Shown one piece after another: positions 640 to 7,334 of a stretch of 45,685 nucleotides of DNA; position 1 is the first letter of the stretch, and every line of letters begins with the position of its first letter. The notes below the pieces were generated by a model, which was not told the DNA's origin, made no database searches, and saw only the letters and a program-made list of their open reading frames with translations. The DNA comes from Candidatus Omnitrophota bacterium (lineage in GTDB: Bacteria > Omnitrophota > Gorgyraeia > Gygaellales > Profunditerraquicolaceae): assembly GCA_028687205.1 (NCBI GenBank), contig JAQUAP010000002.1, positions 1-45,685 of the forward strand. The letters are read 5' to 3'. A program made the translations under genes and the position numbers.

Positions 640-670
640 TGTTTATTTCCTCCTTAGGTTTAATTTAAAA

Positions 671-1081
671 AGGGCAGGTAAAATAAGCCGGGTTCTGTCT
701 TGATACGAGTATACGCATCGAAAAGTGGCCATTCCTCTAAGACCCTGATGTTGACACCAGGACTCAAGCAGCTTATTACCCGAGATTAATAGCGCGCCGG
801 ATAAGCGCGCGCCCTTTTTCAAGGGCTCATCTCCTATTCGCCTTGCTCCACGCAGAGATTGCCGCGTTTCATCTCGCAGTCGAAGGCTGCGAGATGATCC
901 TGAGCCGCTATAGGCGGCGAAGGATCTTACTCATCGCAATCTTTGACTGCTACTCGTCTCTGTGGCTCTTATCCTCGGCAGGCGATTAACCTGCCGGGTA
1001 GGCATTACCCTACTGCGTTATCCTCCGGAGCCCGGACTTTCCTCCCCGCCAAAGGCGGGGCGGCCACATTCTACCTGCCCT
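671..1081 (-). ncRNA. rnpB: RNase P RNA, bacterial type A
   Basis: The minus-strand read contains GGAGGAAAGTCCGGGCTCC (CR-I), GGATAAGAGCC, GGAGCAAGGCGAATAGG and ACAGAACCCGGCTTAT (CR-V). The P1 helix is formed by 5' AGGGCAGGTA (1081..1072) and 3' TACCTGCCCT (680..671). Length is about 411 nt. Confidence 0.93.
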
Positions 1082-2232: not shown

Positions 2233-2309
2233 TGGTGGGCGATAGAGGATTCGGACCTCTGACCTCCACAATGTGAATGTGGCGCTCTAACCAACTGAGC
2301 CAATCGCCC
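2233..2309 (-). tRNA. tRNA-Val (anticodon CAC), CCA encoded
   Basis: Minus strand reads GGGCGATTGGCTCAGTTGGTTAGAGCGCCACATTCACATTGTGGAGGTCAGAGGTCCGAATCCTCTATCGCCCACCA. The cloverleaf folds by hand: acceptor GGGCGAT/ATCGCCC, D GCTC/GAGC, anticodon stem CCACA/TGTGG, loop TTCACAT. The T-loop is the atypical TCCGAAT. Confidence 0.9.
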
Positions 2310-2310
2310 T

Positions 2311-2360
2311 ATGCCTGGGTCCGGATCGGTTCTCGCCAACTCCAGCCCACTATTCCCAAA
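2311..2360 (-). repeat. Diverged third copy of the ~40 nt trailer element (S) that follows each tRNA(CAU)-type 3' end
   Basis: Minus strand reads TTTGGGAATAGTGGGCTGGAGTTGGCGAGAACCGATCCGGACC. The two identical copies at 2498..2537 and 2696..2735 read TTTGAAAATAGTGGGCAGGGATCGGCGAGAACCGACGACC. Confidence 0.7.
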
Positions 2361-2537
2361 TGGGCCCAGAAGGATTCGAACCTCCGACCAGTCGCTTACG
2401 CTCCCCATAGGGGCTCTGCCCCTCTGGCGCTCCCCGCCTGCGGCGGTTCGCTGTCACCCCAAAAACGCGGGGAAAATCTTTCCCCGCACCCCTTTTTGGT
2501 CGTCGGTTCTCGCCGATCCCTGCCCACTATTTTCAAA
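2361..2537 (-). repeat. tRNA-derived tandem repeat unit A (177 bp): GC-rich structured segment plus intact tRNA(CAU) variable-loop/T-arm/acceptor 3' strand
   Basis: On the minus strand the 3' end reads TGGTCGGAGGTTCGAATCCTTCTGGGCCCA. This matches the 3' 30 nt of the real tRNA at 2736..2807 with 1 mismatch. The rest aligns to unit B with 4 substitutions and 1 single-nt indel. Confidence 0.85.
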
Positions 2538-2735
2538 TGGGCCCAGAAGGGTTCCTGCCTGCCGGCAGGCAGGCGAACCTCGCGACCAGTCGCTTGCGCT
2601 CCCCATAGGGGCTTTGCCCCTCTGGCGCTCTCCGCCTGCGGCGGTTCGCTGTCACCCCAAAAACGCGGGGAAAATCTTTCCCCGCACCCCTTTTTGGTCG
2701 TCGGTTCTCGCCGATCCCTGCCCACTATTTTCAAA
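2538..2735 (-). repeat. tRNA-derived tandem repeat unit B (198 bp): same as unit A, with a 20 nt perfect palindrome inserted in the T-loop
   Basis: Direct alignment to unit A. The extra CCTGCCTGCCGGCAGGCAGG at 2554..2573 splits the TTCG/AAC T-loop. Confidence 0.85.
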
Positions 2736-2807
2736 TGGGCCCAGAAGGGTTCGAACCTCCGACCAAGTGATTATGAGTCACCTGCTCTACCACTGAGCTA
2801 TGGGCCC
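2736..2807 (-). tRNA. tRNA with CAT anticodon, either elongator Met or more likely lysidine-type Ile2; CCA not encoded
   Basis: Minus strand reads GGGCCCATAGCTCAGTGGTAGAGCAGGTGACTCATAATCACTTGGTCGGAGGTTCGAACCCTTCTGGGCCCA, a clean cloverleaf. It is not an initiator: pair 1:72 is intact and the anticodon stem lacks the GGG/CCC run. As I recall them, the C4-G69/C5-G68 pairs and the anticodon arm resemble E. coli ileX more than metT. Confidence 0.9.
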
Positions 2808-2823
2808 GAAAAGTTAATACTAT

Positions 2824-2852
2824 ATGATACTATTTTTAGCCCTGTTTTGCAA
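2824..2852 (-). promoter_or_regulatory. Putative sigma-70 promoter for the tRNA cluster
   Basis: Minus strand has TTGCAA (2852..2847), a 17 nt spacer, then TATCAT (2829..2824). This is about 16 nt upstream of tRNA position 1. Confidence 0.5.
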
Positions 2853-4745: not shown

Positions 4746-7334
4746 TTATTTTTTCGCTTGCAGTATTTTTAAAAACAGGCCTACAATTTTGGGGTCGAAG
4801 TGCCTGCCGCTGCCCTCCTGCATTATTTTCATCGCCTTTTGTTTTGAATAGGCCTTGCGGTAGGGACGGTCGCTGGTTAAAGCCTGGTAGGCATCGGCAA
4901 TAGCGATAATCCTGGCGCCGATAGGGATCTCCTCCCCGTTTATGCCGCTGGGATAGCCCGAGCCATCCCATTTTTCATGATGGTACAAGACAAGCGGTAT
5001 CAGGTTGCGTAAAAACTGTATCGGCCGCAATATATCCGCGCCGATCTGCGGGTGCTTTTTTATTTCGTCAAATTCGCGCTTAGTCAGCCTGGCTTTTTTC
5101 AAGAGGATTTTTTCGCTGATGCCAATCTTGCCTAAATCATGCAAAACCGCTCCCTGTTTAATCAGCTCTATCTCATCCTTAGGTAATGCCAGCTTATTAC
5201 AAATCTCGGTCACATAGCGCACAGTATCCTCAGCGTGCTCTCCGGTATAATGGTCCTTTAACTCAATAGCCTTGGCAAAAGCGAAGATTGCTTCAACCAG
5301 GCTCTGGTTAGATTTCTTGGTAAGCTTATCAATCCTGCCCTGAAGAAGCTTGACATCAAGGGGCTTATTCTTTTCCTTTGAAGCCGGGCGCCTTCCTTTG
5401 CCGATATCCAAAGACGAGTAGACTCTATTACCGCCGGATTCTTTCACCTTACTTAATATCTGGTCTGCCAGGTTAACCAGGCCCATGCCCCGATTAACCT
5501 TATTTTCAGGGTAAGAGACTGTTGCCAAGCTTAATTTAAGCGTAACCGTGTGTTTCTTATCTCCGAACCTGTATAAGTGAACCGCATTAAATATCCTCTG
5601 GCTCACGCTTAAGGCCTTAGCTATGTCTATCCCCGGAGAAATAATAATAAACTCTTCTCCGCCGGAACGAATGATGATATCGTACCGGCGCATCATCATC
5701 TTTAACTGCCTGGCAAACTGCTTTAATACCAGGTCCCCAAACTGATGGCCATAGACATCATTTATGGATTTAAAATAATCTATGTCCAGCATTATGACTG
5801 CCAGGGGATGGTCATAACGCTTGGCGCGGTGGAATTCTGCCTCAATAACATCCTGCAGGTAACGGTGGTTATAAAGGCCGGTGTGGGAATCAGTGAGCGC
5901 AAGCTGCCGCAGGCGTTTATTAGACCTTAAGAGCTCTTCGTTTAAAACCCCTACCCGCTCCTGGGCCGCTTTCTTATCCGTAATATCCCGCACATATTCA
6001 ATCGCTCCTAACAACTCTTTATTTTCCTGGTCGAACAAGGGAAAGCTGTAAAGCTCAAGCCAGCCGATGATCTCTCCGTTTTCCCCTCTCTTAGGGACGA
6101 TTTCTGCGGCTAATTGCTGCGTATTCAAGCTTGTCCTGACAGGGCAATTCTTACAGGGCTGCTTGCTGCATTGATAGGTCTCATAACATTTCTTGCCTAT
6201 AAAGGGGACTTTATCCGCATACAACTTTTCCATAAACGGGTTCACCAGGAGTATATTCATATCCTTATCTAAGACGCTTATCCCATCCTGGATACTGTTA
6301 AAGACATTGGAAAGAAAATTTTTATTCTGCCTAAAAGCCTCGTTCAGCTTCTTGCGTTCCTCTATTTCCTTTCTTAATTCTTCATTCGTCCGGCTAAGCT
6401 CTGCGGTCCTCACCTTAACCCTGATGGCCAACTCTGCGCGCGCCTCGCGCAGCCTCTCCTCGTATTTCTTGCGTTCGGTAATATCTTCCATAATACCGTC
6501 AAAATATACACTGCCTTGCGCGTCTTTCTTAGCTACCGCGTTAAGCAGTACCCAGATCTTATTACCCTTAAAAGTTACCAATTGCAACTCTTCATTTTTT
6601 ACCGCACCCTGTTCCAATATTTTTTCACTCATTACCTCTCTTTCGGCAGGATTCTGGTAAAGCTCGCTTACCTTATGCTTAAGGAGTTCTTCTTTTGATT
6701 GCGCTTCAAACATTTTCACGATTGCCGGATTAGCTTCTAAAAAATACCCCTCCGGTCCCGGGGTATTGCGATAGATACCTACCGGCAGGTCATTTACCAG
6801 GGTCGCGTATCTTTCATCGCATCGCGAAAGCTCATCGGATGCTTTTTTCAACTCGGTGATATCGCGGCCCTCAGGAATCAGGAAGATAACTTTGCCGGTT
6901 CCGTCCTTTACGGGCTTAATCGAAAAATCCACATAATGCACATTTGCGTCTTTATCAAGATGGGTGGCTTCAAAACGGACAAATTCTCCGTTTGCCGCTT
7001 TTTTTATGGACTGGCGCAGTTTTTCCTGCATTGAGGGGGAATGTGTCCACCAGGGAGTCTCCCAGAACGGCTTATTCAAGACGCTCTCGGCCGTAATACC
7101 GCTAAATTCCAAAGCTGTCCGGTTGGCTTCAATAAGGGTTCCGTCGGGAGTCATCAGGCCGATGAACTGGAAAGTCTGGTCAAAAAGAGCGCGCAGTTTT
7201 TGCTCATTTTCCCACTCGGATAACTTATGGCGGGATTCAGCCTTTTCCAGTTCCGTAATGCGGATTTGCAAGAACTTGATTTCGTCGCTTAGCTTTTCTT
7301 CGGCTTTATGGTTAAAATGCGTGCTCTCGTCCAT
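4746..7334 (-). CDS. Multi-PAS sensor with GGDEF diguanylate cyclase and HD-GYP phosphodiesterase domains
   Basis: Three PAS-like modules, one carrying CYETYQCSKQPCKNCP. Then RYD-x5-GGEEF (I-site plus active-site motif), then HD...HHEKWDGSGYP (HD-GYP). The track ORF starts at TTG 7388, overlapping rpoD. I prefer ATG 7334, but the start is uncertain. Confidence 0.88.
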   Translation of the reverse strand: MDESTHFNHKAEEKLSDEIKFLQIRITELEKAESRHKLSEWENEQKLRALFDQTFQFIGLMTPDGTLIEANRTALEFSGITAESVLNKPFWETPWWTHSPSMQEKLRQSIKKAANGEFVRFEATHLDKDANVHYVDFSIKPVKDGTGKVIFLIPEGRDITELKKASDELSRCDERYATLVNDLPVGIYRNTPGPEGYFLEANPAIVKMFEAQSKEELLKHKVSELYQNPAEREVMSEKILEQGAVKNEELQLVTFKGNKIWVLLNAVAKKDAQGSVYFDGIMEDITERKKYEERLREARAELAIRVKVRTAELSRTNEELRKEIEERKKLNEAFRQNKNFLSNVFNSIQDGISVLDKDMNILLVNPFMEKLYADKVPFIGKKCYETYQCSKQPCKNCPVRTSLNTQQLAAEIVPKRGENGEIIGWLELYSFPLFDQENKELLGAIEYVRDITDKKAAQERVGVLNEELLRSNKRLRQLALTDSHTGLYNHRYLQDVIEAEFHRAKRYDHPLAVIMLDIDYFKSINDVYGHQFGDLVLKQFARQLKMMMRRYDIIIRSGGEEFIIISPGIDIAKALSVSQRIFNAVHLYRFGDKKHTVTLKLSLATVSYPENKVNRGMGLVNLADQILSKVKESGGNRVYSSLDIGKGRRPASKEKNKPLDVKLLQGRIDKLTKKSNQSLVEAIFAFAKAIELKDHYTGEHAEDTVRYVTEICNKLALPKDEIELIKQGAVLHDLGKIGISEKILLKKARLTKREFDEIKKHPQIGADILRPIQFLRNLIPLVLYHHEKWDGSGYPSGINGEEIPIGARIIAIADAYQALTSDRPYRKAYSKQKAMKIMQEGSGRHFDPKIVGLFLKILQAKK

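Follow-up and report, generated by a model that had tools for sequence, protein, structure and literature searches.

A family of predicted structured RNAs with tRNA-derived tails in tRNA operons of Omnitrophota and Planctomycetota

The 45,685-nt stretch of DNA analysed here (the window), a chromosomal piece of a Candidatus Omnitrophota bacterium, carries between its genes for tRNA-Met(CAU) and tRNA-Val(CAC) a tandem block made up of two GC-rich units, A and B, and a shorter stub, S3. We suggest that the units belong to a large family of structured RNA elements that lack open reading frames (ORFs), are co-transcribed within tRNA operons, and spread by recombination through a tail derived from the 3' end of a tRNA, a composite reading to which we assign a probability of about 0.65. 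The components of this reading differ in strength. Membership of the units in a family and their insertion at this site are practically certain, and a conserved RNA structure is very nearly so; the recombination route has roughly even odds, and processing of the units by tRNA enzymes somewhat less than that. Copies are read on the tRNA strand throughout, and the loci or contigs fetched for comparison, 147 loci in all, are referred to by L-numbers (L001 and so on).

An insertion between two tRNA genes

The gene order of the window toward low coordinates (dnaG, rpoD, genes for a PAS-GGDEF-HD protein and a TPR protein, the tRNA genes, then genes for a CT398-like zinc-ribbon protein, RNase H and the RNase P RNA, rnpB) is kept in relatives that we picked as contigs encoding the closest homologues of the zinc-ribbon protein. 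In five of these (L001 and L003-L006, with the flanking protein 89-92% identical) the tRNA-Met gene is identical to that of the window, only 6 nt (gattta or ggttta) separate it from tRNA-Val, and the covariance model of the family finds no match. Because of this short gap and the absence of a match, positions 2316-2735 represent extra DNA, and the comparison identifies them as a lineage-specific insertion of two complete copies and one that appears to have lost its core. Two further relatives, L013 and L025, hold one unit each at exactly the site used in the window. Ranked by identity of the flanking protein, the site is empty in L001 (92%), filled in L013 (90%), empty in L003 and L006 (both 90%) and filled in L025 (89%); on these contigs, occupancy is polymorphic within a narrow clade. 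An initial annotation of this DNA had taken absence from relatives, together with decay-like variation, as the mark of a plain pseudogene or duplication. The closest relatives do lack the unit, but the family is nonetheless widespread, so that this expectation was too narrow. The occupied spacer changes as well: units stand behind tRNA-Met in the window, behind tRNA-Val only in L045 and behind both in L142, and in one operon type (Thr/Tyr/Gly) a unit lies behind tRNA-Thr in L028 and in front of tRNA-Gly in L029.

The block had been described as tandem units with periods of 198 and 177 bp, each ending in the 3' third of tRNA(CAU), and both Tandem Repeats Finder (period 198 nt, 1.9 copies, 97% matches) and alignment agree. 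The units end in TGGTCG(C)GAGGTTCG..AA(C/T)CCTTCTGGGCCCA, a copy of tRNA-Met positions 43-73 that in unit B departs from the gene by one T-loop substitution, and unit A starts 0 nt from the 3' end of tRNA-Met. Global pairwise alignment reproduces the reported differences between the units (4 substitutions, one 1-nt indel and one 20-nt insertion), and their noted GC excess is borne out at 63% against 46% for the window; core 24-mers occur twice at ≤3 mismatches, against 0.00 expected. Two details required revision. The 40-nt segment S, which is identical 3' of tRNA-Met and 3' of unit A and recurs as a diverged copy 3' of unit B, had been seen as a passive trailer and is instead the 5' arm of a unit, antisense to its tail; and 6 nt rather than 7 lie between S3 and tRNA-Val. 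S3 alone folds as a stem-loop in its minimum free energy (MFE) structure, and its alignment to a predicted core-deleted unit suggests a third unit whose core was lost across the base of its closing helix. The copies are not an assembly duplicate of a single one, because units A and B differ and tandem arrays of the element recur in independent assemblies (L007, L078, L073 and L142, one of them a single-cell genome).

The family and its core

A 22-mer from the unit (GAGGGGCARAGCCCCTATGGGG) matches exactly in 46 contigs of GTDB species representatives, 27 from Omnitrophota, 14 from Planctomycetota (Pirellulales, Planctomycetales and Sedimentisphaerales), 1 from Thermodesulfovibrionia, 3 unclassified and 1 a chance match, and in 95 metagenome contigs. 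The chance match is from Xanthomonas (L017), of which only 24 nt align to the covariance model. That model, R1, was built from a hand-annotated seed of 12 members that leaves out the window units; it finds 155 copies (106 + 49) in the 147 loci and the window, several of them without the exact 22-mer. Both window units match its full length, 1-119, with the scores given in Table 1, follow a same-strand tRNA with which their tail agrees, and have a complementary 5' arm with GAGAACC, the features by which we recognize members of the family. The unit does recur in other genomes, which the initial annotation had proposed to check. Phages and plasmids gave no BLASTN match to either unit, and viral contigs none in two pattern scans. 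Rfam 15, run at gathering and permissive thresholds on the window and one standard family member, holds no family that matches the element, and on the window only the flanking tRNAs and rnpB passed, in keeping with the earlier failure to place the units in any RNA family. Full-text literature searches found no description of the family, although a publication that they did not uncover is possible.

A standard copy opens with a spacer, a 5' arm ending in GAGAACC, the first strand of P1, an A-rich joiner and P2, and continues with GGGGUGACAG, P3, P4, GAG, P5, CGAC, the 3' strand of P1, often a variable hairpin, and the tail. The core of about 118 nt thus consists of five helices, P1-P5, and the conserved joining strands GGGGUGACAG, CCAGAGGGGCAGAGCCCCUAUGGGGAG and CGAC. 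P1 pairs a 5' strand GAACCN with NGGUUC at the far end; P2 is a long GC hairpin with its base extended by G.U pairs; P3 is a variable hairpin, often with tandem G.A pairs; P4 reads CCA-G-AGGGGC-AGA-GCCCCU-A-UGG; and P5 is a variable hairpin with GNRA-type loops. The tail repeats the neighbouring tRNA, starting in the T-loop (position 55-57) and ending with the discriminator. A variant represented by the window, L012, L013, L025 and L084 (the window type) has CGACCA/UGGUCG as its P1 and a tail that already begins in the variable loop; here the pairing of GAGAACC with GGUUC lies one step to the outside, beyond tandem G.A pairs. Subtypes follow the host phylum, Omnitrophota copies having GAGAACC at the end of the arm and Pirellulales copies UCGAACC together with GGGUGUGGGAAAAG features. 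A protein-coding reading of the core was rejected, as the lengths of P3 and P5 vary by non-multiples of three.

Several details of the initial annotation find their place in this scheme. The hairpin GCGGGGAAAGAUUUUCCCCGC that it singled out is the conserved helix P2, and the substitution that it placed in the loop of the GGGGC/GCCCC hairpin is an A to G change in the P4 loop, a polymorphism found family-wide. The 20-nt insertion in unit A is real, but its identity had to be corrected: it is the family's regular optional helix at the T-loop junction, where about 70% of the family has a variable extra hairpin (the P0/P1 junction). A CCUGCCUGC...GCAGGCAGG palindrome is found at varying positions, in the window (2554-2573), L049 (683-701), L024 (2415-2435) and L035 (2003-2016). 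These sites lie at the T-loop junction, in J2/3 and in P5 (4 cases within or beside units, where 0.41 would be expected), and the palindrome may be a small portable hairpin module.

Support for the fold comes from a model-based alignment of 96 distinct copies, in which 39 pairs were counted. Standard pairs make up 87% of the cells, against 74% after shuffling; changes on both sides occur in 36 of the 39 pairs; and compensatory cells number 403, against 121 ± 9 in shuffles, a value reached in 0 of 500. When partners were slid by 1-3 columns as a control, pairing was 34-54%. The pair types in P1 are GC (54), CG (14), AU (5) and UA (4), and one diverged copy has the strands of P4 swapped (CCCCGC...GCGGGG). 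Changes between copies are, in other words, compensatory, which the initial annotation had put forward as a check. Loops, internal loops, junctions and the optional hairpin account for all six differences between the two window units, and the P5 tetraloop changes from GCAA to GUAA, both of the GNRA type. From a plain MAFFT alignment RNAalifold could recover no helices but P2 and P4, since variable hairpins misalign, and the hand-annotated seed and covariance model were used instead. Across the family G.U pairs outnumber A.C pairs by 330 to 30 (11:1). An RNA, or a single strand, read in this sense predicts such an excess, which would be unpairable on the other strand; the tRNA strand is thus the RNA sense, in agreement with the earlier preference for the minus strand. 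Taken as a whole, these counts argue strongly for a conserved RNA structure.

Arm, tail and spread

The 5' arm reads as the antisense of the tRNA T-loop, the 3' strand of the T-stem and the 3' strand of the acceptor stem, and complementarity between arm and tail is evident. GAGAACC, near-universal in the arm, pairs with the T-loop sequence GGUUC(GA). The arm also varies with the tRNA: GCAAGGAU goes with AUCCUUGC at tRNA-Gln, GGUAGGGCUC with GAGUCCUACU at tRNA-Asn, and CCAGUGAGAUUC with GAAUCUCGCUGG at tRNA-Ala. Free RNAduplex and longest-run scoring proved too noisy, T-loops being common to all tRNAs, and we replaced them by a fixed-register test over six tRNA-specific positions. Arms agreed with their own tails at 3.91 of the 6 positions and with the tails of other units at 2.93 of 6, the observed own-tail mean being reached in 1 of 10000 permutations. 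For the window, a base-by-base reading gives an imperfect duplex of 29 nt (6 bp, a tandem G.A, 5 bp, an internal loop, and 4 bp ending in G1-C72) beside which A73 is unpaired, and MFE folds close each unit with the arm-tail helix.

The link to tRNA genes holds across the family. A same-strand tRNA lies directly upstream in 77 of 133 distinct copies, with 22 anticodon classes represented; 20 more copies lie at contig ends, and at least three that appeared to have no tRNA follow tRNAs with group I introns that ARAGORN missed. Group I introns (RF00028) were found in tRNA genes just upstream of units in L127 (3251-3462), L018 (2192-2498) and L030 (2564-2757); another in L051 (6161-6430) is about 5.5 kb from that locus's unit, and in L050 an insert of about 250 nt in an anticodon loop (about 5995-6250) does not reach Rfam's threshold. 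Introns in tRNA genes seem to be common in both phyla.

The breadth of this association bears on the possibility, raised in the initial annotation, that the units are degenerate tandem duplicates of tRNA(CAU). Their tail does equal the 3' third of the tRNA, and a weak resemblance to a tRNA 5' half appears in a MAFFT alignment. The same core, however, stands behind 22 or more kinds of tRNA on about 140 contigs, each kind having its matching tail. The best score of a unit as a tRNA (RF00005) is 17 bits against a threshold of 29, and ARAGORN and Rfam call only tRNA-Met(CAU) and tRNA-Val(CAC) in the region. We count this reading as already refuted, together with that of an assembly artefact.

Tandem arrays are common (L007, L073, L078, L028 and L034), and contigs end inside the element in 13 cases against 5.8 expected. 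In one Sedimentisphaerales metagenome-assembled genome (MAG), a unit behind tRNA-Ala (L014, 1780-1960) carries the tRNA-Asp tail (GAGCCCCUUCGGCCUCG) of the unit at L047 (850-1100). In one Omnitrophota MAG, copies behind tRNA-Val(GAC) and tRNA-Val(CAC) are 100% identical from the T-arm on, their upstream sequences being unrelated. Both cases show a tail that moves with the element instead of being taken over from the tRNA at the new site; in the first, a copy has gone with its tail to a tRNA that is not its cognate. A pair of contigs from one MAG (L009, 1-200, and L045, 1-200) end at the same point in identical copies behind different tRNA-Val genes, a pattern suggesting that assembly broke off at a repeat. 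CCA following the tail, which might have betrayed copying from mature tRNA, showed no consistent signal (2 cases one way, 3 the other).

These observations are relevant to the alternative that the element is a host-beneficial noncoding RNA gene, an ancient leader or trailer RNA of tRNA operons that is inherited vertically and often lost. Its tail would have arisen by local partial duplication of the tRNA and been retained for closing the fold and providing a 3' end of the tRNA type. Such a gene would fit the strong conservation of core sequence and structure over at least two phyla and the clustering of subtypes by host phylum; in six loci the core passes from CGAC directly into the mature 5' end of a full tRNA, as a processed leader would, and one context is a 5' untranslated region (UTR). 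It is harder to reconcile with patchy occupancy among genomes with 89-92% identical flanking proteins, with the occupation of different spacers of one operon (Met/Val; Thr/Tyr/Gly) in different genomes, with identical copies at different tRNAs of one genome and a foreign tRNA tail, or with tandem arrays and the excess of contig breaks inside the element, and we regard it as quite unlikely.

We also considered that the element might be a satellite of tRNA-targeting integrases resembling a cis-mobilizable element (CIME), its tail serving as attachment (att) site and its core as cargo or accessory. Tyrosine integrases encoded by larger elements at other genomic sites would insert it, excise it and stack it in tandem. 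Within the tRNA, the repeat begins in the T-loop (55-57), or between variable loop and T-stem (40-50, in tails with GGUUC), and ends at the tRNA 3' end. The T-loop is reportedly a classic sublocation of integrase crossover. The site is polymorphic among equally related genomes and the tail moves with the element, as would be expected of an integrating element. Tandem accretion at a tRNA 3' end defines CIMEs (PMC5704250), and partial tRNA fragments commonly mark integrations (PMC9897764). On the other side, Pfam annotation of 41 window ORFs found no mobility gene (integrase, transposase or reverse transcriptase), bearing out the initial annotation as to integrases, and clustering of neighbouring ORFs over the 147 loci found none of the three recurring; these loci contain no larger, integrase-bearing version, and the element is absent from the phage, plasmid and viral collections searched. 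About 70% of the copies have a hairpin exactly in the presumed downstream overlap region, which should inactivate an att site, and many integrase specificities would be required for tails that match 22 or more anticodon classes. A decayed element, moreover, would not retain a covarying, G.U-rich core across phyla. We therefore judge such a satellite unlikely. The att-type duplication proposed in the initial annotation captured the behaviour at the DNA level (insertion, a polymorphic site, a travelling tail), but the units are not a decayed scar, because the core of about 118 nt is under strong structural selection across phyla.

For the reading that we favour, a co-transcribed structured RNA spreading through its tail, we propose the following course of events. 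The block would be transcribed from the tRNA-Met promoter within a tRNA-Met ... tRNA-Val precursor, because the only promoter-like site in the region (Table 1), presumed to be the start of this transcript, lies ahead of tRNA-Met, and at least nine genomes have tRNA-Val on the downstream side of the insertion. Transcription of tRNA-Val would have to pass through the insertion, since in relatives it follows tRNA-Met by 6 nt. Each unit would fold into a closed domain whose outer arm-tail helix ends like a tRNA acceptor end, with G1-C72 paired and A73 free, so that the machinery acting on tRNA ends could release it: RNase P, 3' trimming and CCA addition may yield and stabilise an RNA of 165-190 nt. 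A gene for RNase P RNA of bacterial class A (156 bits; window 668-1080, minus strand) is found on the strand of the two tRNA genes, about 1.2 kb 3' of them, so that an RNA-based RNase P is available for tRNA-like ends. At the DNA level the tail may provide homology to tRNA genes and allow Campbell-type or gene-conversion insertion at tRNAs with matching 3' ends. Arrays could then arise by unequal crossing-over, loss by recombination between repeats, and the S3 stub by deletion across the closing helix. Among the earlier suggestions, a tRNA-like small-RNA family comes closest to this scheme; the large family, the compensatory changes and the strand agree with it.

A number of observations weigh against our reading. 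Transcription, processing and stability of the units are all predictions from sequence. The evidence for the arm-tail helix is statistical and modest, and many tRNA-Gln arms cover only 5-9 nt and stop short of the acceptor end, so that only the window type makes a convincing mimic of an RNase P substrate. When the whole transcript is folded, the MFE structure pairs the arm of unit A with the 3' third of the real tRNA-Met; the element could therefore interfere with the tRNA rather than be neutral. P2 of each unit (2664-2687 and 2466-2489) scores as an intrinsic terminator in both orientations, GCGGGGAAAGAUUUUCCCCGC being followed by a U-tract with an A-tract upstream, and such a terminator-like P2 in Omnitrophota copies would, if efficient, cut off tRNA-Val. 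Between loci the right end of the repeat lies anywhere from 0 to +40 nt beyond the tRNA, and three loci besides the window have trailing partial copies; simple insertion predicts neither. Some copies have no tRNA tail, with the L040 core sitting in the spoVG 5' UTR, and the six loci in which a complete tRNA begins right at the end of the core have an AT-rich insert in P5. The pair counts, finally, are biased toward structure by an alignment fitted to the model, and conservation of the 22-mer is a selection effect of gathering members by exact match to it; P1, P2 and the variable helices are unaffected by that selection.

Further details of these contexts may be added. The P2 of Planctomycetota has no U-tract and is not terminator-like; that of the window sits between tRNA-Met and tRNA-Val, which are presumably co-transcribed in relatives. 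The tailless core of L040 (3650-4700, minus strand; also in L088 and L053) lies directly upstream of the spoVG ribosome-binding site, and downstream in L040 a tRNA-Gln gene is split, its 5' half and last 15 nt about 250 nt apart with a second, intact tRNA-Gln between them. At L029, L039, L044, L085 and L120 the ...GCGAACGAC end of the core abuts the first base of a complete tRNA, and the P5 insert is usually 70-90 nt and AT-rich. A GGUUCG-hairpin-GAGAACC segment precedes the unit in L039, L050 and L085, apparently joining it to the 3' end of a preceding unit.

The arm invites one more explanation, in which the RNA inserts itself. It would act as a guide to the T-arm, and the core, as a ribozyme or by recruiting a host enzyme, would join its CGAC end to the tRNA at the T-loop or 5' end, with return to DNA by reverse transcription and recombination. 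Arm and GAGAACC together form a continuous antisense of tRNA positions ~52-67 that co-varies with tRNA identity. The junction always comes right after CGAC(N), at tRNA position 43, ~51/52 or 1 of a full tRNA. Invariant joining strands, several GNRA loops and tandem G.A motifs are as in catalytic RNAs, and no protein is encoded in cis. No Rfam ribozyme or intron model, however, matches the element. The inconsistent CCA leaves it without a signature of copying from mature tRNA, repeats reaching past the tRNA end point to recombination at the DNA level, and no reverse transcriptase was seen near the element loci. We hold it to be highly improbable. The broader idea that the element represents an autonomous class of mobile RNA, an antisense-guided "tRNA hitch-hiker" without a protein of its own whose core, as a ribozyme or through a universal host enzyme that it recruits, joins the element to the tRNA, seems to us very unlikely.

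The neighbours that recur beside the element are housekeeping genes in synteny (ispE, glmU, prs, and spoVG near tRNA-Gln); the only other clusters are spurious ORFs running through it. In the window, ORFs of 112-200 aa cross the units on both strands (2277-2879 and 2311-2796, plus; 2396-2734, minus), and similar ORFs at other loci cluster only through translation of the conserved element. An FMN riboswitch in L054 (5300-5504, minus strand) is unrelated to the element.

Table 1. Positions of the two tRNA genes, the inserted units and their parts in the window.
Feature	Position	Strand	Remarks
Promoter-like site TTGCAA-17-TATCAT	2824..2852	-	17 nt 5' of tRNA-Met; same sequence in insertion-free relatives
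tRNA-Met(CAU), intact	2736..2807	-	host tRNA, its 3' third copied in the units; ARAGORN, Rfam, 73.3 bits
Unit A, 198 nt	2538..2735	-	core model match 97.6 bits, E 7e-25
Unit A, spacer	2724-2735	-	
Unit A, 5' arm	2701-2723	-	GGGCAGGGAUCGGCGAGAACCGA
Unit A, core (five-helix junction)	2583..2700	-	P1 CGACCA/UGGUCG
Unit A, P2	2664-2687	-	
Unit A, J2/3	2649-2658	-	GGGGUGACAG; followed 3' by P3, P4 (CCAGAGGGGCAAAGCCCCUAUGG), P5 (GC-GCAA-GC) and CGAC
Unit A, tRNA-derived tail	2538-2588	-	
20-nt perfect palindrome in unit A tail	2554..2573	-	CCUGCCUGCCGGCAGGCAGG, between GGUUCG and AACCC
Unit B, 177 nt	2361..2537	-	core model match 99.4 bits, E 2e-25
Unit B, spacer	2526-2537	-	
Unit B, 5' arm	2503-2525	-	
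Unit B, core	2385-2502	-	
Unit B, tail	2361-2390	-	
S3 stub, 45 nt	2316..2360	-	diverged copy of the first part of a unit: spacer, 5' arm and GAGAACCGA, fused directly to UCCGGACCCA
Original 6-nt tRNA-Met/tRNA-Val spacer	2310..2315	-	ggcata; gattta or ggttta in relatives
tRNA-Val(CAC), intact	2233..2309	-	ARAGORN, Rfam

Relation to known systems

Comparison with established RNA classes gave only rejected candidates. ARAGORN finds no transfer-messenger RNA (tmRNA) in the window, and variable-helix lengths that are not multiples of three leave no conserved reading frame. YrlA, a bacterial Y RNA (RF02553), scores 14.6 against 69 bits, mostly over tRNA-Val, and Clostridiales-2 RNA (RF02937) scores 24.7-25.7 against 58.6 bits in a match confined to the A-tract and the P2 hairpin; like these two, a sub-threshold Plastid-ycf2 match reflects the P2 hairpin or the real tRNAs. 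Group I and group II introns and other Rfam ribozymes have no match at E ≤ 10 over the units, and group I introns turned up only within nearby tRNA genes at other loci. A miniature inverted-repeat transposable element (MITE) was likewise rejected: the repeat, 11-71 nt, is variable in length, and its ends are sense and antisense tRNA sequence rather than transposase repeats.

Resemblances to several systems are nevertheless instructive. The definition of CIMEs and their tandem accretion at tRNA 3' ends are set out in PMC5704250: they are gene-less DNA bounded by a repeat of the 3' part of a tRNA, they stack in tandem, and they are present or absent between relatives. The element shares these traits, the tRNA 3' third being repeated at the end of each unit. 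CIMEs, however, are decayed integrative and conjugative or mobilizable elements (ICEs/IMEs) of kilobase size without conserved RNA structure, whereas the element measures 150-200 nt, has a covarying cross-phylum core and an often hairpin-interrupted crossover site, and had no integrase-bearing parent that we could find. With tmRNA, YrlA, viral tRNA-like structures and mascRNA it has in common that the ends pair into a tRNA-type 3' terminus and that the remainder of the tRNA gives way to a foreign structured domain. Mimicry of tRNA by YrlA is described in PMC4201824. In contrast to that class, most copies of the element have no T-arm hairpin, D-arm or elbow, and the tail is an exact copy from the neighbouring tRNA rather than a generic mimic. 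GOLLD and ROOL are structured RNAs that often lie beside tRNA genes and are possibly co-transcribed with them (PMC5737381). They differ in their size of 500-800 nt, their frequent location in prophages and the lack of a tRNA-derived tail or antisense arm; the element, for its part, is absent from viral collections and has no match to those Rfam models.

Three further groups offer partial parallels. The element sits in tRNA operons much as the small RNAs that derive from tRNA precursors do, which are short, poorly structured, species-specific sponges, whereas the element is mobile and phylum-spanning and has tRNA-derived ends. Such small RNAs, among them 3'ETS-leuZ of E. coli, are embedded in the spacers and trailers of tRNA operons, and their ends are made by tRNA processing enzymes. 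REP/BIME, Correia, BOX and RUP sequences and MITEs are short, ORF-less, multi-copy repeats with inverted-repeat ends that are co-transcribed in host RNAs and show insertion polymorphism. They have transposase-type terminal repeats, fixed 2-bp target duplications and broad insertion, while the element keeps to tRNA operons, has sense and antisense tRNA sequence as its "inverted repeat", and varies in repeat length. Group II introns (through exon- and intron-binding sites, EBS/IBS) and the bridge RNA of IS110 use an RNA segment that is complementary to the insertion target and changes with it. The likeness of the arm to such guides is an analogy only, since the element has neither intron nor bridge-RNA architecture, an associated reverse transcriptase or recombinase, nor an Rfam match.

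The finding has practical consequences for metagenome assemblies of both phyla, in which the element yields partial tRNA copies, spurious ORFs and contig breaks; gene callers may label ORFs that cross it as hypothetical proteins. Its architecture, a multi-helix core closed by a helix of sense and antisense copies of the 3' end of a neighbouring tRNA, is apparently undescribed. We rate the element as a new class, as no system that we compared combines a phylum-spanning, covarying core with such a closing helix. If the family is real, and the comparative evidence says so, then the poorly studied Omnitrophota and Planctomycetota gain a structured RNA that is both widespread and strongly conserved.

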